In this document: one piece after another, positions 6,669-37,308 of the stretch
Layout: each line of letters begins with the position of its first letter
Numbering within the stretch: the first letter of the stretch is position 1
Origin: Candidatus Heimdallarchaeota archaeon
Lineage (GTDB): Archaea; Asgardarchaeota; Heimdallarchaeia; Hodarchaeales; Hodarchaeaceae
DNA: 39,464 nt
Assembly: GCA_048881705.1 (NCBI GenBank)
Contig: JBHLSH010000030.1
Location: 1-39,464 of the forward strand
Reading direction: 5' to 3'
The notes under the pieces: model-generated
What the model was told of the DNA's origin: nothing
Database searches by the model: none
The model's input: the letters and a program-made list of their open reading frames with translations, nothing else
Translations under genes and position numbers: made by a program

Positions 6669-7067
6669 TTAAGGATCAAATGCTGAAGGAGAAAAGTGAA
6701 TTTTACGTATTGAAACTAACTCTCCGTTCGTTAAAGTGACAATCCCGATTCTTTTTGCCAGTTCTCGAGCTGTTGCTGAGAATCGGTTCGCAACAACCAT
6801 CACCTTGGCTAATCCTGTTAATTCTTGAACCCTTTCTGCTTCCAAGATAACATTGTAACCACAAGATCGTGCCCAATCCTTTACTAGAACACCAATTTTT
6901 CCAACCTCTCCCGAAGTGGACGGATTATTAGTTCCATTGATTAAAAAAGACAGGCGGATCGGTTTTTCGTTTTTCCCCGTTATGTGTTGGTTCTCAGCAA
7001 AATCAAATTCTCGAAATTTGAGAAAATCCCGTGTAAGTTTAGTTAAATCCAGCGAGTAACACCTCAA
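6669..7067 (-). CDS. Mrr-like restriction endonuclease-fold protein, catalytic acidic residues apparently lost
   Basis: GVLVKDWARSCG...VMVVANRFSATARELAKRIGIVTL fits the Mrr_cat pattern (VxxKxW..VG; iv..xFT..A...A....I.L). The expected PD and (D/E)xK acids read S/F and L. TTG start. Confidence 0.6.
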   Translation of the reverse strand: MRCYSLDLTKLTRDFLKFREFDFAENQHITGKNEKPIRLSFLINGTNNPSTSGEVGKIGVLVKDWARSCGYNVILEAERVQELTGLAKVMVVANRFSATARELAKRIGIVTLTNGELVSIRKIHFSPSAFDP

Positions 7068-7092
7068 CTGATATAATATGCGAATGTCAAGG

Positions 7093-7099
7093 TATATAA
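7093..7099 (-). promoter_or_regulatory. Candidate archaeal TATA box for the 6669-7067 gene
   Basis: TTATATA on the minus strand, preceded by purine-rich AAAGAAGA (BRE-like), about 26 nt upstream of the TTG start. Confidence 0.45.
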
Positions 7100-7165
7100 T
7101 CTTCTTTAAGATATTTAAATAGGTTTACACTGATGTTCCCTCTGTAACACGCTCTATAATTCTGA

Positions 7166-7184
7166 TTTGCCTTATTAAGGCAAA
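7166..7184. promoter_or_regulatory. Perfect 9-bp inverted repeat, candidate operator
   Basis: TTTGCCTTA-T-TAAGGCAAA in the 690-bp divergent intergenic region. Confidence 0.4.
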
Positions 7185-7757
7185 AAAAGGTTATTGTTTA
7201 AAGAAAGTATGAATGAACAATGGAATAAATGATTTTGATAATTTGGAAATAGGATTTTAGAAATATGGGGCATATAGCCTGGCTGGATAATCAACGGAAT
7301 ATTACATCATGACTAACAAAAACACAACAAGAATACACCTCTGTATCTCTACGAGCGACAAAAAAAGATAACTACGATATCGTATCAGTCTCCAACGCTG
7401 GCTTAAACCCAACACTCGACATGGGATGAATTCTTTGGGATAATCTCGAGATAGAATCATTAAACTAATCTTTTTTCTACTTTAATGTACATATGTGCCT
7501 CAGAAGGCTAATCTAACAAATTATATGCGTTCATTCTTAAGCCCGATTTTCGAGATAGATATTATCAAAAGCTAAATGTAGGAGAAGCTGCCATATCTGC
7601 TAGAGAAAGATAATGTCGTTAAGATGACAGAACCTATTGATGTAAAATTAAGACTAAGGTTTAAAAGAGATGGAGAAATGTTGAAATTTGATCAGTGCAG
7701 AAAAAGCTTTGAAACACCATAAATAGCGAAATCCTGTAATTTTGTGAGCATGTAAAA

Positions 7758-8834
7758 ATGTTACAGTCTTCAAAAGTTCGTGAATTACTAAAAAGGCAGG
7801 GAAATCCAAGGGTTTCTAAGGAAAGCGTGCATGCTCTCAATAATCTTTTAACGCGCCGAGCCAAAGAAATTTCGACAAAAGCTGTCACTCTGGCGCAAGA
7901 TCAAGGCCGAGAGGAAATCAGAGAGGAGGATATCACACAAGCTGTTAGAATGGGTTCCTCATTCGTTACCTTCGAGGTTGATGAAAAAGCGTCTGTTGTC
8001 CATTACGTCTGGTTTATTAGTTCAGGTGGAACCTGTCTTCTTTCCAGGGGATACTCTGGCTTAAAATTTCCTGACACAATCTTCGCAGGGCTTTTAACAG
8101 GAATTTTGGATCTTTTCGGGGAAGTAACAGGAAGGCGCATTGATAAATTTTCTACAGACGATCTTACAATTCACTGTAGAAGAATAGGTGAAATCACAGT
8201 TGCTGTGATCTGTGATTCAGACCATGGAGGACCGGTTGACGAATTGACTGAACTACTTGCGAAGCGGTTCGATCAGGTTTTTTCTGATGAGATTTCAATG
8301 GATGTGATTGATACGTCTGTTTTCGAGGAATTCACTCCTGTACTTGATGCCCTCGTGACCTCTGCAGGTATGCGAATTCCAACCCAATCATTAAAAGTTC
8401 TGCCAAGCAGTGCATCCCTGACAGATCGTCAATTGGAGGAAACAGTCGACGCGGCGGCGCTAAGACAAGAGTTGAAACGAGCACAGACAATGATCCAAGA
8501 TCTAATGCTTTTCAAGAGAGAAGACGAACCATCTCCTGTGCCCCGAGTCGATAACATGCTTAACGTTCCTCAAGATGTGGCAGAAATACAAGCGGTAATC
8601 CGTCAGGCCTCAAAACATATTCGAAGCGAAATAGATGGCGCAAACGGCGAGAAAAGCCACGAACTGAATCAGGAATTAAAGGTGGTAAGAAAAAAAAAGG
8701 AGGGTGTTGTCTTGGATGAGGATAGAGCGGCAGTAGCCAAGCCATCTGCTAAAAAACCCAAGAAAATCACCTATCAGAAATCAAAGAAAAAGACTCAGGG
8801 AAAAAGAAAGCGGGTAAGAAAGCGGCGCTCTTAA
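7758..8834 (+). CDS. Histone-fold / longin-like domain fusion protein with a Lys/Arg-rich C-terminal tail
   Basis: aa 1-66 align to archaeal HMf-type histones (RVS...A..LA...GR..I..EDI..A). aa 80-200 show the Asgard longin pattern (VWFISSGGTCL..., FAGLLTGI..LF.EV..., FDQVF..., FEEF). The last 31 aa contain 17 K/R. Confidence 0.8.
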   Translation: MLQSSKVRELLKRQGNPRVSKESVHALNNLLTRRAKEISTKAVTLAQDQGREEIREEDITQAVRMGSSFVTFEVDEKASVVHYVWFISSGGTCLLSRGYSGLKFPDTIFAGLLTGILDLFGEVTGRRIDKFSTDDLTIHCRRIGEITVAVICDSDHGGPVDELTELLAKRFDQVFSDEISMDVIDTSVFEEFTPVLDALVTSAGMRIPTQSLKVLPSSASLTDRQLEETVDAAALRQELKRAQTMIQDLMLFKREDEPSPVPRVDNMLNVPQDVAEIQAVIRQASKHIRSEIDGANGEKSHELNQELKVVRKKKEGVVLDEDRAAVAKPSAKKPKKITYQKSKKKTQGKRKRVRKRRS

Positions 8835-8842
8835 ACCATCGA

Positions 8843-11587
8843 TCAATGAACGGTGATAGGCAAATTTAAGGAAGTTTGTAAATCAGGGAATTGCATAGAG
8901 TACAACTGGAGGACATAAGAGTCAAGTTTCGTTTGGAATCTTTTTAATGTCGTTAAATTTTTGGATATCTTACGATAGTCTTGGGTAATCTTTTGGGGTA
9001 TCGGAGGGGGGAAGAGGCTAAGAAGATTATTCGATGTACAGGCTTGGATAAAGCGTCTTTGATTTGGGAAGGATTCTTTAGCTTGTAAGTGGCCAATCTG
9101 GATTTGATTCCAAAGCTTCCTTAACAAAGTTCCCGTTTCTTTGCCCATATAATTTAGCGAGGTGACAGTTTCTTCGATACTATTTATAAGCTTGTTTTGC
9201 TTTTCATTCTGTTTATCGAGTACGATTATTGGAAATCTTTTCAAAGCACTAACTCTAATTTGAGGGTATCGTCTGAATCCCCTCTTTCTTATTATATTAA
9301 GCTCTTCTCCAATCCATTTACCTATTCTAGAGTTCAAAATTCCTAGTATTATTTCAAAAGAGTAAGGAGGTATTACATTGTAAATAACATGAAGATTTCT
9401 GAGGGCAAAATAACCCTGATTATCATAAACCGAAATGAATTCGGGGGCCGTTTGTCGAAGAACAATCTTTGGTTCAGTAAACCTTTTGATATTTCCCGAA
9501 ATTAAAAGGACTCGCTTTCCCGTAATGGAAATATCTTGATTAGTATTACGGAGATGTTCCTCGAAGTCCTTATTGACACGGACATAAGAGTTGGGACAAT
9601 GGGGAACCCAAAAGAGAATAAATGGATGAGGAACACCACTTGCACCATCCAGGACAGGAAAAAAATCTTTGGAAGGTTCTGACGAAAGAAACCGAGATTT
9701 TAATAAACTACCATATTCCAAACCACAGGCAATTTTTGCTATATCGCCAAGGAATGTCGTTTCCGAGAATAACGTGTCCAATTGATACTTAAACTGGTTA
9801 TAGGTTAAAGAAATATGAGGTTGAGAAAGGAAGTAACTACAATTCACCTTCAACTTACCATGGTCAATTGTTTCCCTCCATGTAACGGATTTGTCCTTGA
9901 GTTCAAGCTTCTCTTTGCTAATTACAATAGTACCAAGGTCAACAACAGCATCTATGTACTTGAAGTGCCCTAGAACTGATAAAATCGTGTAATGTTGAAT
10001 AAGATGACTCCTTATGCCGTTATATGATGGTAAATCAAAAAAAACTGAGTCGACTACAAAACCAACCAATCCCGATGAAGCTTGTGTTACATACTGCAAG
10101 GCCAACCCTAAAAATATACAGTAAGAGTTAATCCTTCTTTGAGTAAATTTGGGAATCAGTGATTGAAGCTCTGTAATTTCCTCGCGGGAATAAATCGATT
10201 GAGTAAATCGACTGTGAAGAGCTCCAAATGGCGGATTAGAAAGTATAATACCATATTTTTCATTTTTCATTTTATTTTGGGTTGCTTTTAAGAATTGGCG
10301 TACAAAATCGCGATTTCTAAACTTTTTCAGTTCGATGAAGTCTGAATTCCTGGATTGGTACTCTCCACAGAACGCGTTAAGAAAAGATCGACCATTTTCG
10401 ACAGCGTTAATGTCTATGTCGTTTCCAAATAGACAGTCATCATAGATCTGTTTACGTAACTCTATGAATGAACATGATCCAGTTAAATAGTCACAATTTA
10501 GTAGTAATAAGGGTACTAGGCCTTCCAAGAAAACAATCAGTAAGATTCCAGTTCCCATAGCTGGATCAAAAACACGAAGATCTTTTATCGGAGGGAAAAA
10601 TCCCCGGTTCTCGTATATTAGAAGAACTTCAACCACTAATGACTCTGCAAGAGGTAATGGAGTATATCGTCCCTTTGCTAGCGTTTTCTGCGAAACGGGC
10701 GATATATATTCAAGAAAATTTACTGGTTGTATCTCTAAGAGGTCCATCAAAGAATGATCAAGCTCAAGTTCTGTAGGGATGATATTAAACGATGTTTCCT
10801 CCGAAGAAGGGATCTTTTTACTCAGAAGGTATGTTCTAATCTCCGAAAAATAGGATTGAATCCCCTCTTTTCCCCTTAATGTAGCCTTTCCATCTTTGTC
10901 TCTTAAGAGGTGTTCAAAATGCGTCAGTATGCTTCGTTGAACGCTGATTAATTCAAAGAGAAGTTTTATAATTCCGTCGTTCGTTCTGTTGGTATCTGTC
11001 TCTGAATACAAATCACTTTTTTTAGAAATTTCACGAATTAGATTGGTTATAACTGATTTTCCACGTTTGACAGTTTTCCAACGTTTCTTTGGAGTGTAGA
11101 GATTAAATTGCGAAGGATCTGACAACAAAATCCCTAATAGGACCAAACGTAGGGCTGGTATCAAAGGGACCCAGGTTAATAATCCAGATTTTTCCGAGGT
11201 AGTAGCAAACACATATGTTGACTTGCTTGAATGCAAGATTAAGTATGAGTTGCCAGTTCTGTACAGCTCATCCAGAATGACAGATAAGTATTTTGAAGAT
11301 TTAACCGCAAAAACGCTCCAAATTTCATCCTGACAATTCAATACGGAAATTTTCTCTTTTCTCCAAATCTCAAAGGAGTGCACCCTGTTTGGTTTCCATC
11401 CTCCTTCTTGGAGAAGAATCTTTAATGAAATGCTTTTAGATAGGAGAGAAATAAAGCGAAGAGATTTATTGTCACTGAATGTGTTACTCTCGATAATACA
11501 TAACTGGTCCTTGAAAGATAATGCCGAGATTAGCGAGAATGGAACTGGTTCAAACCCAAATAGAGAATATGATAACTCTGGCTTCAT
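8843..11587 (-). CDS. Gamma-class N6-adenine DNA methyltransferase (Eco57I/TaqI-like, type IIG architecture)
   Basis: YTP, motif I FDPAMGTG, motif IV NPPF, and a TaqI-like target-recognition region (KIVLRQT...ILNS). The N-terminus lacks a recognisable PD-(D/E)xK motif. Confidence 0.85.
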   Translation of the reverse strand: MKPELSYSLFGFEPVPFSLISALSFKDQLCIIESNTFSDNKSLRFISLLSKSISLKILLQEGGWKPNRVHSFEIWRKEKISVLNCQDEIWSVFAVKSSKYLSVILDELYRTGNSYLILHSSKSTYVFATTSEKSGLLTWVPLIPALRLVLLGILLSDPSQFNLYTPKKRWKTVKRGKSVITNLIREISKKSDLYSETDTNRTNDGIIKLLFELISVQRSILTHFEHLLRDKDGKATLRGKEGIQSYFSEIRTYLLSKKIPSSEETSFNIIPTELELDHSLMDLLEIQPVNFLEYISPVSQKTLAKGRYTPLPLAESLVVEVLLIYENRGFFPPIKDLRVFDPAMGTGILLIVFLEGLVPLLLLNCDYLTGSCSFIELRKQIYDDCLFGNDIDINAVENGRSFLNAFCGEYQSRNSDFIELKKFRNRDFVRQFLKATQNKMKNEKYGIILSNPPFGALHSRFTQSIYSREEITELQSLIPKFTQRRINSYCIFLGLALQYVTQASSGLVGFVVDSVFFDLPSYNGIRSHLIQHYTILSVLGHFKYIDAVVDLGTIVISKEKLELKDKSVTWRETIDHGKLKVNCSYFLSQPHISLTYNQFKYQLDTLFSETTFLGDIAKIACGLEYGSLLKSRFLSSEPSKDFFPVLDGASGVPHPFILFWVPHCPNSYVRVNKDFEEHLRNTNQDISITGKRVLLISGNIKRFTEPKIVLRQTAPEFISVYDNQGYFALRNLHVIYNVIPPYSFEIILGILNSRIGKWIGEELNIIRKRGFRRYPQIRVSALKRFPIIVLDKQNEKQNKLINSIEETVTSLNYMGKETGTLLRKLWNQIQIGHLQAKESFPNQRRFIQACTSNNLLSLFPPPIPQKITQDYRKISKNLTTLKRFQTKLDSYVLQLYSMQFPDLQTSLNLPITVH

Positions 11588-13387
11588 TTATCGGCCCTTG
11601 TTTTTCCGAGCCAGCTGACGAGTGTATAATTCTCCAGCTAGATTTCTAAGTGTTCTATCCTTATCAAAGAGGATTACTTTCTCTAGGGCCTCAAGAACAA
11701 GAGTGATTTCGTTTCCTTGATATTCACCCAGTTTGTGGATGCTATTTAGCCGCTCTAACATATTTTCGGCTCCAGTAGCCTGCCGGACAAGTTGTTCCAA
11801 TCCGTTTACCTCATCTAGACGGTCAGCCGGCGGAATGAGAAGGGGTAGTTTAATCGTAACCTTGGTACCTTTCTGATATCCGCTTGACGAGACTGTTAGT
11901 TCTCCACCATGATCTTCAATGATCTGCTTTGTCAGATAGAGGCCAAGGCCGAGACCAGAGTGACTGGGATGAAATGTCATAAATGGTTTTCCAACATCCT
12001 GTAATTGATCAGGTTGGAATCCGATTCCATCATCTTCAACAACTAGAATCAGGTTCTCTTGCAGGTTATCTCTCGTAACTCTGATGGATATATTTCCATG
12101 ACCAGTATAATGTATGGCATTTTCAAGAATATTACGAATGGCTTGAGACATTTTGTTATGATCTAGATTCACTAAGTGAGGAATTGCGGGTATCTCGACT
12201 GAAACATGTACCCTATATTCTCGCAAAAGATGTTGGATTTCGTCGATACTCCTTTGTAACAGTGGCATGAAGTTTTCTCCCCTGAGATGGCACCGTATTT
12301 TTCCCTTATATCTTAATGCGATACTTGAATTCAAATCTTCAATTAGATCCATCATTCTATTAAGATTTCGCTTAAAAATTTCTAACATCCGGTTTTCCAA
12401 TGATTCTTTCTCTGAACCTTGGAGCCCATGTTCAATTTTCTTGACATAAAAGTCAAAATTTGCCTTCAATGTGGCCAAAGGAGCGCGAAATTCGTGTTGG
12501 GTTATTGTTAGAAAATCAAACTTCATATCATTAAGCAAACGGATATTAGAAACGTCGATCAGCACTCCAAGGATAATTGAGTCCGATTCTGTATGACTCC
12601 TCTTAAAAGTGGCATAAACGGGAAGTCTAGTACCATCTTTTTTCATTAAATCAAATTCTGTGGGATTTTCTATGATCTGTTCGGAATTTGGGACATTCGG
12701 AGTTTCTGGTAACGTAATCTGTTTCCTTTTGCTTTCTAGAATCAATCTTGCAATCTTTTGACGATGTTCAGGGGCTATGAAGAAGGTTGGCATGCTAAGA
12801 TACTTGTCGAATTCGTTTCGCTGATAATCTAATTTGTCCAGGAAAGCTTGATTGTAATAATCGATTACCCCGTTCTTCACAATGAAAAGGAAGTCGGGGG
12901 CATTATCTATTAAAAACTTAAACTGTTCTTTCTCGCTTTCTAAAACCGTTAAATGACGTTTTGTCTTGCCAATGTCCCTAATAATCACGATTTCCCAAGT
13001 TCCATTATTATCTAGGCTTGCTGTCCTCAGCTGTACCCAAGTTGGAGTTCCATCAGTATATTGGGCCTTCCACTCGGATAATTTCGGTAATGATTCAGAA
13101 GAATCTATTAATTCTAGAAACCTCGGTATTTCAGAAGGATCTAGAAGCTCTAAGAAGATTTCTATGGACGGAGGAATAGCAGATGACCCGAAATCCGTTC
13201 GCGCTTTGCTATTGAGAAAAACTGGCCTGCGTTTGTGCAAAACAACAATCCCAGCTGGAATTTTATCTAGAAACACTGAATCAAAGGGTAAACTGCCTAT
13301 TTCTTCAGGGTTCTTTGTATCTTCCATTAGATTTCCCAATTTTCTTATAACGAAACTTCTTCCAGGTCCTATCAAACGATTTCGCAT
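11588..13387 (-). CDS. Cytoplasmic PAS-PAS sensor histidine kinase with a C-terminal HEAT-like repeat (true start may be the downstream MEDTKN)
   Basis: H-box QHEFRAPL, N-box NILENAIHY, G1 EDDGIGF, G2 GLGLGL. Two PAS domains and no TM segment. Confidence 0.92.
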   Translation of the reverse strand: MRNRLIGPGRSFVIRKLGNLMEDTKNPEEIGSLPFDSVFLDKIPAGIVVLHKRRPVFLNSKARTDFGSSAIPPSIEIFLELLDPSEIPRFLELIDSSESLPKLSEWKAQYTDGTPTWVQLRTASLDNNGTWEIVIIRDIGKTKRHLTVLESEKEQFKFLIDNAPDFLFIVKNGVIDYYNQAFLDKLDYQRNEFDKYLSMPTFFIAPEHRQKIARLILESKRKQITLPETPNVPNSEQIIENPTEFDLMKKDGTRLPVYATFKRSHTESDSIILGVLIDVSNIRLLNDMKFDFLTITQHEFRAPLATLKANFDFYVKKIEHGLQGSEKESLENRMLEIFKRNLNRMMDLIEDLNSSIALRYKGKIRCHLRGENFMPLLQRSIDEIQHLLREYRVHVSVEIPAIPHLVNLDHNKMSQAIRNILENAIHYTGHGNISIRVTRDNLQENLILVVEDDGIGFQPDQLQDVGKPFMTFHPSHSGLGLGLYLTKQIIEDHGGELTVSSSGYQKGTKVTIKLPLLIPPADRLDEVNGLEQLVRQATGAENMLERLNSIHKLGEYQGNEITLVLEALEKVILFDKDRTLRNLAGELYTRQLARKNKGR

Positions 13388-13551
13388 TAATATGAATTGG
13401 AAGTGAAATTTTTCATTGGAATTCCGAGGTTACGTAGTCAGATCAATTAATCGGTATATTTTTTTAATAGCTTCCCGAATTCTCGAATTGTTATTATAAC
13501 TTTGGAGCATGGATCTAGAAAGATGGATTGTAACGGTAGATCTCTCCTTTA

Positions 13552-14220
13552 ATGATTTATTTCGATTTATGGAGGTATCCGATATTGCTAGAACGATTAA
13601 AAGAGCTTGAAGTGGCTCAAGACTTCGCTAGTATGATAGAAGAACTCAAGAAGCACGAAACTGAGGCAACTCAGGCGTATACGCGGCTTCAGTCAGTTAT
13701 ACAAGATGAAAATATCCTTGGAATCTTAAAGGCTCTGGAGGAAATATCTGTATCCATAACTTCATTATTAAGGCACTGTTCCACGTTATTGGGAGAAGCA
13801 GAATTTGTTGAAGCTCCAACACTTTCTGAAACCTCGATAGATGCTGGTAGCAGTATACCAACGGGTATTGAGCCCGTTCGGGACAGGGATGACGTTTTTT
13901 CTTTAACCAGTTTGAGGATCCTATCAGAAGAATTCCCGAAAATCGAAGTAACCTCTGATGATACTAGAGTAACAGCAAGATTTTGGTTTATTTCAGAATC
14001 TGGGGAGCAGCTAGCTGTAGAACGGACAAAGAGCGAAAAAGAAACCTTTGGTAACGTTTTACTGAGCGTTCTTAATGAAGTGAAGGCAAAACCTGAAGAA
14101 AAGTTCTCTGTAGCTCCATTGGGATTCGAAAATTTGCTACAGTATCAGTTTCATAATTCAATTGGCAGTTTGACCAAATCCTATAGCGAGGACTTCACTT
14201 TAATCAAGTTATTTAACTAG
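13552..14220 (+). CDS. Hypothetical protein (helical N-terminus, linker, alpha/beta C-terminus)
   Basis: 222-aa ORF on the same strand as the downstream cluster, with protein-like composition. Confidence 0.7.
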   Translation: MIYFDLWRYPILLERLKELEVAQDFASMIEELKKHETEATQAYTRLQSVIQDENILGILKALEEISVSITSLLRHCSTLLGEAEFVEAPTLSETSIDAGSSIPTGIEPVRDRDDVFSLTSLRILSEEFPKIEVTSDDTRVTARFWFISESGEQLAVERTKSEKETFGNVLLSVLNEVKAKPEEKFSVAPLGFENLLQYQFHNSIGSLTKSYSEDFTLIKLFN

Positions 14221-14254: not shown

Positions 14255-14506
14255 ATGGTGATTGGAATGACAGAAGAATATGAAGAAAACCCTATTACAT
14301 CAACTATTGAGGTAGAGGTTCCTAAGTCTTTTATTCTTGTAATGGATAGATTGACTAATGCGGGATACTACTCCTCGCAATCAGATATTGTTAGACAGGC
14401 CCTTATCGATCTCTTCTTTGACAAATTAGACATGGATTTCTTTGAAATTGATCCAGATACCTTTGCCTTTGATACATCAAGTTTTGAGGACGATGAAGAC
14501 ATATAG
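14255..14506 (+). CDS. Ribbon-helix-helix (CopG/Arc/MetJ) DNA-binding protein with an acidic tail
   Basis: TIEVEVPKSFILVMDRLTNAGYYSSQSDIVRQALIDL matches the archaeal RHH pattern (V.lp......lD.Lv..G.Y.sRSe.vR.Al). Confidence 0.8.
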   Translation: MVIGMTEEYEENPITSTIEVEVPKSFILVMDRLTNAGYYSSQSDIVRQALIDLFFDKLDMDFFEIDPDTFAFDTSSFEDDEDI

Positions 14507-14515
14507 GATCTCGTT

Positions 14516-14794
14516 ATGTCTATGACAAGGGTAAAAACAATACTTTTCGCCAGTCTTCGAGACTTTGGACCCAATAATCTTCGTGAAGGCGAAATAATAG
14601 ATTTGGATCTTGAGAATAGTTCTGCCACAGTTGAAGATCTTCTGAAAGCCCTCAAGATTCCCAGAAATTTGGCAAGGGTCGTTATGATAAACGGTGAACG
14701 CATAAATAGATTGGATCGGAAGCTTCATTCTGATGATACCGTCATGGTGTTCCCCCCTATTGGCGGGGGATTCTGCTTCAATAACATTGGTTAG
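14516..14794 (+). CDS. MoaD/ThiS/SAMP family ubiquitin-like (beta-grasp) protein with a C-terminal extension
   Basis: VKTILFASLR, TVEDLLKAL, VMING, LHSDDTVMVFPPIGGG, followed by an extra FCFNNIG. Confidence 0.88.
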   Translation: MSMTRVKTILFASLRDFGPNNLREGEIIDLDLENSSATVEDLLKALKIPRNLARVVMINGERINRLDRKLHSDDTVMVFPPIGGGFCFNNIG

Positions 14795-15494: not shown

Positions 15495-16310
15495 TTGGTG
15501 TTCAATAAGGTGACCATAATGTGGCAAGAAGAGTACCAGAACCTTCTCCAAGAGTTTGTGAGCGCCGTTGAAGATGAACTTCTCCAATACGTTAGACAAT
15601 TGTCCGTTTTTGGTTCATATCAGAAAGAACAGACTAGTGGCCCAGGTTGGATTATACCAGGCACAAGTGACCTCGATCTGGTACTTGTGGTAGATCTTGA
15701 GGACATTAATCCCGAAAAACACACACGTCGTCTTGCAAAGATAGGTGAGGCGTTATCTGTGTTTTTTGTACATCCTGTATACGCTCCAATCCTTGATCTT
15801 ACCCTATTAGAATTTCAAGACCTCCCAGTTTCCCAGGGTATGGTTTTTTCGCCCATACATGCGGTTTCTTGCTCCTCCCAAGGTGAGGTACTCCTCGGGA
15901 AAAATGTTCTTGCGGATACATCGTATTCAGAGAAGATGCTCAACAGATGCGCCAAAACCTCAATAGCTCAGGGATTAGAGAGTATTAAATCAGGTTTTTT
16001 ACACAGAACGGTCTTCGGAGATCATCAACTGACGTATGAATTTGCTGAAATAATACTTGACATGACCCATTCAGCTCTTGCGGCACAGGGAGTCTTCAAT
16101 TTGGTACGTTCCGAAGTTCCTGAGAAGTTTGAAATGATTATTGGAGACAAAATGGAGTTCGATGGTGGCATAGATATCGTTTATGAAGCTAAAAAGTGGA
16201 GGATGGGAAGTCAAAAAATGAAGAATGCAGATTTCTTGGTGGGATGTCTCAATTTCTCCCAGGCCTTGAACAAGTTTATACGTAACCCGTTTGTGATCGC
16301 ACAGCAATAA
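15495..16310 (+). CDS. Nucleotidyltransferase (Pol-beta superfamily) with a C-terminal helical domain (start may be ATG 15519)
   Basis: VFGSY...SDLDLVLVV (GS plus DxD), a third Asp in LDLT, then a helical-bundle C-terminus. Confidence 0.8.
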   Translation: MVFNKVTIMWQEEYQNLLQEFVSAVEDELLQYVRQLSVFGSYQKEQTSGPGWIIPGTSDLDLVLVVDLEDINPEKHTRRLAKIGEALSVFFVHPVYAPILDLTLLEFQDLPVSQGMVFSPIHAVSCSSQGEVLLGKNVLADTSYSEKMLNRCAKTSIAQGLESIKSGFLHRTVFGDHQLTYEFAEIILDMTHSALAAQGVFNLVRSEVPEKFEMIIGDKMEFDGGIDIVYEAKKWRMGSQKMKNADFLVGCLNFSQALNKFIRNPFVIAQQ

Positions 16311-16392: not shown

Positions 16393-17109
16393 ATGAAATC
16401 GAGTTTCTCACATAAACGACCTCTCGTGAAACAACGGATAGTCTTGTTACGGCTTGATAAACTCCTCCCGCATGAGCAAATAGTCAACAGCCATGTCGAC
16501 TTTCTGAAGGATAGTCTAAGCAAAACAAAGCTATTCATAAGGCCAATTGTCGTTGCAAAGGGTTATAACGTTATCTTAGATGGACATCATAGGGTTGCCG
16601 CGCTACAAGAACTGGGTTACCGAAAAATCCCATGCGTTCAAATACCTAATTATCTAAAAACTGATAAAATTGTTTTGGGTACTTGGTACCCCGTGTATAA
16701 AGGAAATTCGATAACGAATAATACCCTCTTAGAAGGTTTTGTAACAGAAAACATTGAATGGAAAGAGGTTACCGATTTTGATCCTTCTCTACTATTGGAA
16801 CCCGAAGTTGCGTTTATACTGGTGACTCGAACGAATTTCTTTCAGTTATTTGGTGATCAAAAAGCACTTTACAATAATTTTTTGGATCAATGCGATCCAA
16901 AAACCATAGATTATGTCAAAACTATCGATTATGCGGTTGAGGCGGTCAAAAAGGGAAAAGGAAGATTCGCTCTTCTACGTAAAGCGCTTACAAGAGAGGA
17001 TGTTATTGAAATAACGAAAAACCATAATGTATATGCTCCTAAGACAACTCGGCACATTCTATCCTTTAGATATCAAGATATCCGCGTTCCACTCGAAAAG
17101 TTAAAATAA
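16393..17109 (+). CDS. serK: ADP-dependent free L-serine kinase, SerK family (ParB/sulfiredoxin fold)
   Basis: PHEQ, DGHHR, TWYP and RKALTREDV...PKTTRHIL.F...I.V.LE.L are shared end to end with Thermococcales SerK as I recall it; similar length (~240 aa). Confidence 0.8.
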   Translation: MKSSFSHKRPLVKQRIVLLRLDKLLPHEQIVNSHVDFLKDSLSKTKLFIRPIVVAKGYNVILDGHHRVAALQELGYRKIPCVQIPNYLKTDKIVLGTWYPVYKGNSITNNTLLEGFVTENIEWKEVTDFDPSLLLEPEVAFILVTRTNFFQLFGDQKALYNNFLDQCDPKTIDYVKTIDYAVEAVKKGKGRFALLRKALTREDVIEITKNHNVYAPKTTRHILSFRYQDIRVPLEKLK

Positions 17110-34863: not shown

Positions 34864-37308
34864 ATGGGTAGGGCCTCGGAGCATTGTGAGATAAGTATGA
34901 TAGGAAATAATAGTTCATCAAGTATATCCGAGAGGAAAATATTAGCCATAGATGACGATGAGTGGTTCCTTGGGCTCCTGGTGAAAAAATTCGGTGATGT
35001 AGACCCTAGTTTCAAAATAACCACAGTATACTCAGCGAAGGCCGCCTTGGAGAAACTTGAGGTAGATTCGTTCGACTGTATTCTATGTGATCACAAATTA
35101 CCTGGCACCTTAATTATTGATGGTAAGGTTTTTCCAGCGGATGGAATTAATTTTCTTAGAAAACTCCAGGAAGAACTGAGAATAGATATACCTGTTATAT
35201 TTGTAACTGGCCAAGGATCGGAGGAAATCGCATCCCAGGCATTATTACAGGGCGCTTCAGGGTATTTCATAAAACGCGTTCAACCAGGGTATTACTCTCT
35301 TATGGCGACTTCTATTCGTCAGACAATTGATAGATATAGATTACAAAACGAACTTAAAAAGTCCGAAGCTAGATATCGGGATCTATTCGAGAATTCAACG
35401 GGCTTAATTTTGATTTTCGATACCGAGGGTACATTAAAGGAAGCGAATAATGAATTCTTTTTGAAATTCGGATATGACAGAGAGGAAATGGGGGCTTTAT
35501 CTTTTAAGGAGTTGGCTTTGGATGAAGATCGCCCCATATGGGCAGATTTAATAAAGAAAATCAAGGACGGATTATCTCTAACCATTGGAACTATTCTCCG
35601 TGGCGTCACCAAAAAGGGCAAAATCGTGCACCTCGATTTGACTGCACGACCAATTTATGGCAAAAAAACCGGGGAAGTTAGAGCAATTCAGGCATTAGCA
35701 ACTGACATTACGCACACAATACAGACGCAACAGGCTCTAATTGATTCAGAAGAGAAGCATCGAAAAATATTTGAGGGACTAATAGATACGGGAATCATTT
35801 TGATGACAAAGGAAGAAGTGATTTTAGATGTTAATTTAGCTTTTACGCAAATCTGCGGCCTATCAAAGGTAGAAACAATAGGAAAACCAATTTCGGAAAT
35901 TATGCATAAACTAAAACCCGTTAAATTTGATCCAAGCCAGGGAGAAATTTATTCAGACGATATGAACTGGCTTCATGAGCGTTTCCTACATATAATCGAT
36001 CCCTCATCCTCAGAGCGCTATTCTGAACTAATGTATTCTATTACAAACCTAGTCGATGACTCTAAGCATATAATTGAATCACGAGGCTTTACAATCGAAC
36101 ATTCTGCAGGATACCAAGTAGCCTTTGTTATGCGAGACATTTCTGCATGGGTTTTTTCGGAAGCAGAGAGAAATACTATCGCCCAAAGATTCCGTGTACT
36201 CATCGAACGGACTCCTATTGGAGTGTGGGTGAGTGATGTTCCCGATGAGAAAACAACTTACATAAACGAAAGTATGGCCAGGATGCTCGGGTATTCGCCA
36301 CATGAAATCATCGGATTCCCAGTTTTTGATTTTTTGACACAAGATAGTACAAAAAGGTTGAAAGAAATTACCCAAGGTAGAGAGGCTGGAAAAGAACTCA
36401 GCGAGTCGTATGAATTAACTTTTTTTCACAGATCTGGCAAACTGGTTCATACATTGGTAACTGGAGCCGCCATTCAGAGTACCAGCGGAGATCTTCAAGA
36501 AACTTATGGGTTTATCAGAAACATCACTGAGGAGAAAGCAAGGGCCTCAGAGCTACAGACAACCAAAGAGTTTTTGGAGGAGATTCTTACAAGTATCCCA
36601 GAGGGTGTTTATGTCTGGGATCGCAGAGAAAGAGTGACAATGGCAAATACACGCATGGCGAAGATCCTGGAATATACATCTAGCAGGGAACTAATAGGTC
36701 GAAGTCTGTACAGCTTTTTCCCCAATCGTGATCACGAACATATCAAAAATTTGGTCAAGGATAGATTGAGGGGGAACAGAAGTGAAACCTTCATGGACAT
36801 AACGTATGTTACGAGGAAGGGGAAGGAGGTAAAATCAAAGGTAACCTCTGTTCCTCTCGTAGCGGATAATGAGGTAGTAGGCGCGGTTGTTACGGTGACC
36901 GACATAACAGCAGTGTCAAAAATCGAAGAATCCTTTCATCAGGTCCAAGAAGAATTAGACATTCTAAGAGAAAATATTAATCAAGGTATCATATATGTGG
37001 ATAATCTAGGTAAGGTTTTATCCCACAATTCACAGGCCCAGGAGTTATTCGCCCATCTCAATGTTGACGTACGAACTCTAAATGTAATACACGACCCAAC
37101 GTTAAAAGAATCTGGACTGGGCGAAAAATTCCGGAACGTATTGTACCAAAAAGCTGAAAATGCAATTAATGAATTTTCCGTTGAAAAACTTATCACGAAG
37201 GGTATTCCATGGTATTTACGGTTTAAAGCCGTTCCTATATATAATATCTCGAAACCAACGATCCAAAAATGGTGCTTTTTTCTGGAAAAAGCCGATAGGA
37301 ATCCCTGA
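34864..37308 (+). CDS. Receiver domain plus five PAS domains, no output domain
   Basis: REC: ILAIDDD, phospho-Asp CDHKLP, VTG, FIK. Five PAS units begin at LFENS, IFEGL, LIERT, ILTSI and LRENI. No H-box. Confidence 0.9.
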   Translation: MGRASEHCEISMIGNNSSSSISERKILAIDDDEWFLGLLVKKFGDVDPSFKITTVYSAKAALEKLEVDSFDCILCDHKLPGTLIIDGKVFPADGINFLRKLQEELRIDIPVIFVTGQGSEEIASQALLQGASGYFIKRVQPGYYSLMATSIRQTIDRYRLQNELKKSEARYRDLFENSTGLILIFDTEGTLKEANNEFFLKFGYDREEMGALSFKELALDEDRPIWADLIKKIKDGLSLTIGTILRGVTKKGKIVHLDLTARPIYGKKTGEVRAIQALATDITHTIQTQQALIDSEEKHRKIFEGLIDTGIILMTKEEVILDVNLAFTQICGLSKVETIGKPISEIMHKLKPVKFDPSQGEIYSDDMNWLHERFLHIIDPSSSERYSELMYSITNLVDDSKHIIESRGFTIEHSAGYQVAFVMRDISAWVFSEAERNTIAQRFRVLIERTPIGVWVSDVPDEKTTYINESMARMLGYSPHEIIGFPVFDFLTQDSTKRLKEITQGREAGKELSESYELTFFHRSGKLVHTLVTGAAIQSTSGDLQETYGFIRNITEEKARASELQTTKEFLEEILTSIPEGVYVWDRRERVTMANTRMAKILEYTSSRELIGRSLYSFFPNRDHEHIKNLVKDRLRGNRSETFMDITYVTRKGKEVKSKVTSVPLVADNEVVGAVVTVTDITAVSKIEESFHQVQEELDILRENINQGIIYVDNLGKVLSHNSQAQELFAHLNVDVRTLNVIHDPTLKESGLGEKFRNVLYQKAENAINEFSVEKLITKGIPWYLRFKAVPIYNISKPTIQKWCFFLEKADRNP

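Follow-up and report, generated by a model that had tools for sequence, protein, structure and literature searches.

When genes that look as if they had been taken over from defence systems lie next to a histone gene and a sensor kinase gene, do they act together, or do they share little more than an address? The question is raised by contig JBHLSH010000030.1 of Candidatus Heimdallarchaeota archaeon (Hodarchaeales), whose 39,464 nucleotides (nt) constitute the window analysed here. An initial annotation of this window had read four adjacent genes, encoding a degenerate Mrr-like protein, a histone-longin fusion, a type IIG-like methylase and a PAS kinase, as a candidate signal-controlled DNA-methylation and chromatin system, in which defence-derived parts may have been domesticated. 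The explanation that we favour, and consider probable, is a vertically inherited and genus-wide syntenic block that holds an operon of a sensor kinase and an orphan methylase. The four genes do lie where they had been placed, and their domain calls are borne out by the list of open reading frames (ORFs), Pfam, NCBIfam, AlphaFold2 and Foldseek. Together with their immediate surroundings they are as follows (aa, amino acids; bp, base pairs):

6669-7067, minus strand: Mrr_cat-like protein, 132 aa, TTG start (Pfam, Atlas structure, alignment with E. coli Mrr)
7068-7757, no strand: divergent intergenic spacer, 690 bp, AT-rich, 33% GC
7758-8834, plus strand: histone-longin fusion, 358 aa (Pfam, NCBIfam, AlphaFold2 model, Foldseek)
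8843-11587, minus strand: predicted type IIG-derived N6-adenine methyltransferase, 914 aa (Pfam, alignment, DrdV profile match, VIA-align)
11588-13387, minus strand: PAS sensor histidine kinase, 599 aa (Pfam, 15-orthologue alignment)
13552-14220, plus strand: conserved 222-aa protein of unassigned family, divergent from the kinase, syntenic in all loci

The comparison covered 24 Hodarchaeales species, of which 22 belong to the genus of the window (its own genome counted) and two to a sister family; G and L labels denote genomes and loci of this set, the sister-family genomes being G022 and G023 (loci L042 and L041), both fragmentary. Synteny was examined by tblastn of all window proteins from 447 to 23742 against 20 loci, and the invariance of motifs in the methylase and the kinase was scored over 15 orthologues each. 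Since full-length orthologues under purifying selection exist in the genus genomes for all four genes, an origin as chance ORFs is excluded on comparative grounds.

The methylase matches the Pfam families Eco57I, N6_Mtase and TaqI_C, the last of these at aa 700-787 with an E value of 1.5e-12. Both the S-adenosylmethionine-binding motif D341-P-A-x-G-x-G347 and the catalytic motif N451-P-P-(Y/F454) are invariant among the orthologues, as are many residues of the specificity domain. The protein can be divided into four parts:

aa 1-165 (11093-11587): putative decayed PD-(D/E)xK-like domain, from a structure match by VIA-align
aa 166-300: helical linker
aa 301-600: methylase core with DPAxGxG and NPP(Y/F)
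aa 601-800 (9188-9787): TaqI_C specificity domain, followed by C-terminal helices

Mean pairwise identity is highest in the specificity domain (0.56) and falls through the core (0.41) and the N-terminal domain (0.28) to the linker (0.21), the N-terminal domain evolving at roughly double the rate of the specificity domain. Within aa 1-300 the only invariant residues are F93, L108, F127 and W139; no Asp, Glu, Lys or His is invariant there, and the catalytic residues that define a PD-(D/E)xK nuclease are thus not conserved. A model of these 300 aa (pLDDT 80, pTM 0.81) was compared by VIA-align with 48,161 chains, and the five best were all restriction PD-(D/E)xK nuclease domains, among them that of HsdR and the N-terminal ones of DrdV and BpuSI, both type IIG (Z 6.0-6.2). 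In sequence space, the family profile found DrdV residues 153-542 among PDB sequences (E 1.7e-10), and a Pfam scan of the N-terminal 300 aa returned no family. The idea that this N-terminus might be a receiver domain for the kinase was ruled out, as it has no conserved Asp and a different fold.

Type IIG and IIL enzymes such as MmeI, BpuSI and DrdV share this order of parts, namely an N-terminus of PD-(D/E)xK fold, a helical spacer, a gamma-class N6-adenine methylase with NPPY/F and a TaqI_C-type specificity domain. Unlike them, the window methylase has no conserved nuclease residues and a specificity domain that is conserved instead of variable; it is also chromosomal, vertically inherited and genus-wide, with a predicted translational coupling to a histidine kinase. 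Most species of the genus keep the ORF intact, with a length of 890-940 aa, and the locus is fixed although the proteins are only 31-38% identical. The family is confined to Hodarchaeales (27 matches among 5.8 billion proteins). No cognate restriction nuclease is encoded with the methylase, whose neighbours are the kinase, the histone-longin fusion, an unassigned gene and metabolic genes. We read the protein as a former type IIG enzyme whose nuclease has apparently decayed while methylation and target recognition remained strongly constrained. Because the methylase motifs are kept and no part is better conserved than the specificity domain, it fits a domesticated orphan methylase of fixed specificity. 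The domestication proposed at the outset can therefore be retained for this gene, with its dead nuclease, intact motifs, conserved specificity and vertically inherited fixed locus, but not for a system of four genes.

The kinase upstream of it contains, according to Pfam, PAS_9 (aa 164-280), HisKA and HATPase_c (aa 409-516), with the PAS region drawn at aa 154-280 and HisKA following it. Of the two PAS domains announced by the initial annotation, one is thereby confirmed together with HisKA and HATPase_c, whereas the second (aa 45-139) is weak, with an E value of 0.006 that lies under the Pfam cut-off. Invariance extends to H298 of the H-box and to N419 and N423, D452-x-G-x-G456 and G480-L-G482, which constitute the N, G1 and G2 boxes; by its motifs the protein is a soluble, cytoplasmic PAS histidine kinase predicted to be catalytically intact. 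It thus carries the boxes of a classical two-component kinase but not the adjacent response regulator: no receiver domain adjoins it, and the nearest Response_reg domain, one of seven in the genome, is 21 kb away. That domain (window 34939-35286) is the only one on the contig and lies inside an 817-aa ORF. Residues 520-599 of the kinase (11591-11830) form a conserved helical C-terminal extension of 80 aa that belongs to no family and has invariant R546, E569, D575 and R581.

What ties the two genes to each other is their geometry and its persistence. As the initial annotation had stated, the kinase abuts the methylase, its TAA stop being followed directly by the methylase ATG (0 nt spacing in the window); measured on the longest ORFs, the spacing varies across loci from -92 to +171 nt and is -11 nt in three of them. 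In 18/18 genus genomes that have the kinase, it lies next to the methylase in the same orientation; these include G016 and G017, where other links of the block are broken, and the junction of the two genes is the sole one of the block that is never split. On this comparative evidence the pair appears to be a tight, conserved, genus-wide two-gene operon and the one genuine functional unit of the block. In G010 (L025:9163-14034) and at the matching site of G012, a gene for a 1623-aa subtilase (Peptidase_S8) starts right after the methylase stop and is predicted to lengthen the kinase-methylase transcription unit. In G003 (L023:14941-15424) the kinase is cut down to a C-terminal remnant, aa 440-596, and the downstream methylase keeps its 914-aa frame. 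The methylase would therefore have no strict need of the kinase.

According to the explanation that we favour, the methylase would no longer restrict and would instead methylate adenine in one motif common to the whole genus, as a resident orphan. Its gene would be co-transcribed with that of the kinase, from a promoter within the 164 bp of 13388-13551, a spacer that the operon shares with the gene at 13552-14220, and the kinase would signal to an unlinked receiver protein. That the signal of the kinase also feeds back on methylation is a tentative extension, which we are inclined to doubt. In architecture the methylase resembles a type IIG enzyme without its nuclease, and in its presumed evolutionary behaviour it resembles Dam or CcrM, with which it shares the missing cognate nuclease, the clade-wide fixed locus and an apparently conserved target. 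It differs from both in its lineage (type IIG-derived, 914 aa, with the dead nuclease domain kept), in being archaeal and in being known from sequence. A phosphorelay governs CcrM through its transcription, and the gene for CcrM does not lie in the operon of the kinase.

Restriction-derived orphan methylases are the main known route to prokaryotic epigenetic regulation, and published phylogenies place Hodarchaeales nearest to eukaryotes among archaea. To our knowledge, no restriction-derived orphan methylase has been described for Asgard archaea, and we know of no orphan methylase with a genus-wide translational coupling to a sensor kinase; a literature search for archaeal operons of a kinase and an orphan methylase returned nothing relevant. 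If a conserved motif is indeed marked and the kinase modulates this marking, the operon would offer a case, open to test, of DNA methylation that responds to the environment, and this in the archaeal lineage placed nearest to eukaryotes.

Several observations weigh against this explanation. The evidence for an operon consists of geometry and conservation, and the comparisons span one genus and the two sister genomes, so that the adjacency of kinase and methylase may itself be undisturbed synteny. The intact methylase of G003, next to a kinase remnant, speaks against an obligate dependence. The nuclease fold of the methylase N-terminus is called from a middling Z of about 6, Foldseek found nothing in the PDB at E<=0.001 with the same model, and aligned sequences of the N-terminus share only about 20% identity with the window methylase, a divergence that could hide a shifted catalytic motif. 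Finally, in about 14 genomes histone-longin and methylase face each other as convergent neighbours, and a functional reason for this is possible.

An alternative is that kinase and methylase form an anti-virus module like Ambrosia or Pgl/BREX-2, either still active or decayed not long ago, in which the kinase gates the methylase and the defence is completed by a nuclease that is encoded elsewhere or has been lost. Cassettes that join a kinase to an N6-adenine methylase have a precedent in defence. Ambrosia (AbrR-AbrA-AbrB-AbrC-AbrD), a validated gammaproteobacterial anti-phage system in which a histidine kinase and an N6-adenine methylase occur with a nearby protein of a type IV restriction family, is the closest described combination (bioRxiv 10.1101/2025.09.30.679545). 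The window methylase also gives weak matches to PglX, MADS and type II methylases in PADLOC and NCBIfam, and its closest relatives outside the order, all from metagenomes, stand in defence-type contexts: a complete type IIG enzyme that carries HSDR_N, and two methylases whose genes lie 3' of PLD-SNF2 helicase genes. Against such a module, the block contains no receiver, XRE regulator or HNH nuclease by Pfam; the Mrr-fold protein is degenerate and separated from the operon by unrelated genes, and the locus is not mobile. PADLOC gave only generic matches for the methylase and nothing for the kinase, histone-longin and Mrr-like proteins. Pgl/BREX type 2 joins the PglW kinase and the PglX methylase to the PglY ATPase and the PglZ phosphatase; in the window the PglX match is partial (24 bits, against a cut-off of 900), and no PglY-like or PglZ-like neighbour accompanies it. 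The methylase locus has stayed fixed and vertically inherited in spite of the low identity of its proteins, its specificity domain varies least of all its parts, the opposite of what diversifying defence methylases would be expected to show, and GC is flat (0.37-0.43) with no island features. We therefore consider an anti-virus module improbable.

The proposal of the initial annotation, that all four genes make up one signal-controlled epigenetic system, requires that their co-location be special. In its favour, all four are present and collinear in most members of the genus and vertically inherited, and their order is shared by the orthologues of about 18 of 21 genus species. Unlinked genes with patchy, independent phylogenies, which the annotation had named as the outcome that would speak against it, are not what the genus displays. 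The collinear block is nevertheless longer than four genes, and runs from GNAT (4021), amidohydrolase and metallo-beta-lactamase through Mrr-like, histone-longin, methylase and kinase to 13552, 14907, 15495 and 16393. Synteny is as strong for GNAT, amidohydrolase and metallo-beta-lactamase on one flank, and for the downstream genes on the other, as it is for the four. Likewise, the pairwise-distance matrices of eight block genes correlate with rho 0.57-0.91 over all pairs, and the four candidates, at 0.66-0.79, behave like the flanks. The absence of all four genes from G007 and G011 is uninformative on whether they are gained or lost as a unit, because the flanking genes are missing there as well.

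Where the block has been disturbed, it is the four-gene set that comes apart. The genes gatD and gatE separate Mrr-like from histone-longin in four species (G014, G018, G019, G020), joined by rubrerythrin in G020 (one locus checked), and the subtilase stands between histone-longin and methylase in G010 and G012, so that insertions amount to six species. In G016 (CP070760, a chromosome-level metagenome-assembled genome (MAG) estimated to be 70% complete) the block is spread over about 100 kb; the Mrr-like gene, the histone-longin gene and the kinase-methylase pair are 45 and 60 kb apart, with kinase and methylase still together. Thus the histone-longin and Mrr-like genes appear to owe their place beside the operon to descent rather than to any demonstrable function. 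Since the four are not kept together more faithfully than the metabolic genes at their flanks, the four-gene epigenetic system is unsupported, and so is the link to chromatin or to a reader. In these MAG-rich lineages, the conservation of gene order within a genus is no evidence of a functional system unless the flanks serve as a control.

The histone-longin fusion is a notable gene in its own right. Its N-terminal part matches the Pfam family CBFD_NFYB_HMF at aa 2-63 with 29 bits (cut-off 21.4) and the NCBIfam model archaea_histone with 54.4 bits (cut-off 50). A Pfam search with the C-terminal 291 aa found no family and no longin. An AlphaFold2 model built from 16 orthologues, with pLDDT 81-91 over aa 80-200, suggests the following organisation:

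aa 1-66 (7758-7955): histone fold, with three helices over aa 4-65
aa 80-202 (7995-8363): longin-type domain
aa 223-315: helices and coiled coil, followed by a disordered Lys/Arg-rich tail at aa 328-358

The middle domain follows the order beta-beta-alpha-beta-beta-beta-alpha-alpha, with strands at 80-88 and 93-98, a helix at 106-124, strands at 130-132, 137-143 and 146-152, and helices at 157-179 and 186-202. Foldseek against the PDB returned COPI zeta/delta, AP sigma, the VAMP7 longin, TRAPP, LAMTOR and MglB (E 4e-6 to 3e-4). In the model, the domain therefore has the topology and the structural similarities of a longin domain, and the related roadblock proteins match it as well. The 66-aa histone part resembles HMf-type histones, and the middle domain eukaryotic-type longins (SNARE, adaptor sigma, zeta-COP, TRAPP); unlike either, the window protein is a single chain that joins both and adds a coiled coil and a basic tail. 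Such fusions are rare: an exhaustive profile search found 15 proteins at E<=1e-30 among 1.84 billion representatives, one of them from Heimdallarchaeota LC_3 (OLS23810.1). Among 83 genomes of the class the fusion occurs in Hodarchaeales only, and the LC_3 homologue was not found there. A literature search returned no paper joining 'longin', 'histone fold' and 'Asgard'. The window protein and its nearest relative (G001) lack a Lys-rich N-terminal extension of about 13-25 aa that is found in most genus orthologues.

The geometry of this gene relative to the methylase is as the initial annotation described it, with convergent stops 8 bp apart. The sister family offers a different context. In both of its genomes (L041:1765-5041 and L042:5022-8676) the histone-longin gene lies 26-104 bp 3' of a SerK/ParB_N-like gene and near a nucleotidyltransferase-like gene, which are homologues of window 16393-17109 and 15495-16310, respectively; no methylase or kinase is found near it in either genome. 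The link of histone-longin to these two genes thus appears to be older than its link to the methylase. What can be kept of the proposed connection between signalling, methylation and histone is the physical coupling of kinase and methylase, but the histone-longin gene is only a neighbour by shared ancestry. The sister-family histone-longin proteins lack the basic C-terminal tail.

The Mrr-like protein, the supposed reader of the methylation mark, passes Mrr_cat narrowly, with 22.8 bits against a cut-off of 21, and its match is confined to the C-terminal half, profile positions 48-109 of 115. The Atlas places it with Mrr_cat clusters by features and by structure (TM 0.76-0.78). In the orthologue alignment, which has 72% column identity, the Asp of the GID motif of E. 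coli Mrr is replaced by an invariant S40 and the Gln of QxK by Leu, Ile or Val, with the Lys kept (K63); the next Trp and the C-terminal G-E-L are all that is shared besides this Lys. The protein has, judging from the alignment, a catalytically degenerate PD-(D/E)xK fold, and the claim that both nuclease-derived parts of the locus lack catalytic acids is therefore upheld. With E. coli Mrr it has in common the C-terminal Mrr_cat fold, the K-x-W strand and the G-E-L; unlike E. coli Mrr, it lacks the catalytic Asp, the Gln and the N-terminal DNA-binding domain, and belongs to a family of small archaeal proteins that stand alone and have several paralogues per genome. At 132 aa it has no Mrr_N winged-helix domain, and since the Atlas Mrr_cat matches cover residues 4-127, a further N-terminal domain would not fit. 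Recognition of modified DNA by Mrr is attributed to precisely this winged-helix domain, and the case for a methylation reader is weak. The family profile found no relative among PDB sequences. Of the 41 Heimdallarchaeia genomes searched, 39 encode one to five such proteins, small, free-standing, Mrr_cat-like and lacking the catalytic Asp and Gln, for example at G000:C1:69025-69219 and G000:C26:27877-28179. Among the Atlas structural neighbours of the Mrr-like proteins are clusters of TackOD1, an archaeal two-component output domain.

Taken as one epigenetic system, the four genes would comprise a kinase that controls a writer methylase, an Mrr-fold protein that reads the mark and a histone-longin protein that acts on chromatin. 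Two inactivated nuclease folds are what domestication would be expected to leave behind, and Ambrosia likewise pairs a kinase and a writer of N6-methyladenine with a type IV-family nuclease (bioRxiv 10.1101/2025.09.30.679545). The equally syntenic flanks, the intervening genes, the dispersal in G016, the other neighbours of histone-longin in the sister family and an Mrr-like protein that has no N-terminal DNA-recognition domain and of which three to five paralogues are scattered over each genome of the class render this system quite improbable. We think as little of a related version, a signal-controlled DNA-methylation/chromatin circuit in which the PAS kinase sets the production or activity of the domesticated methylase and histone-longin, possibly with the Mrr-fold protein, responds to the mark. 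Least of all do we expect the 914-aa protein to be a working type IIG enzyme with an unconventional nuclease active site: its complete domain order and the frame kept intact in most species would agree with this, and the aromatic or aliphatic nature of all invariant residues in the fast-evolving N-terminal 300 aa makes it very improbable.

The kinase-methylase module may include one further gene. The divergent gene at 13552-14220 keeps with kinase and methylase in every genome, the rearranged G016 and G017 included, and because it is retained beside them where the block breaks, it may be part of their module. Its product has no Pfam, NCBIfam or PADLOC family, and its C-terminal part has a weak ubiquitin-like/UBX similarity (Atlas model, pTM 0.48, mean pLDDT 0.63).

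The spacer 7068-7757, between the Mrr-like and histone-longin genes, contains no conserved ORF, has no blastn or tblastn match to the orthologous spacers and no Rfam family; its length recurs at 650-790 bp in at least six members of the genus. At 14255-14794, after the 222-aa gene, there follow a small RHH-like ORF and a ubiquitin-like gene of the MoaD/ThiS type.

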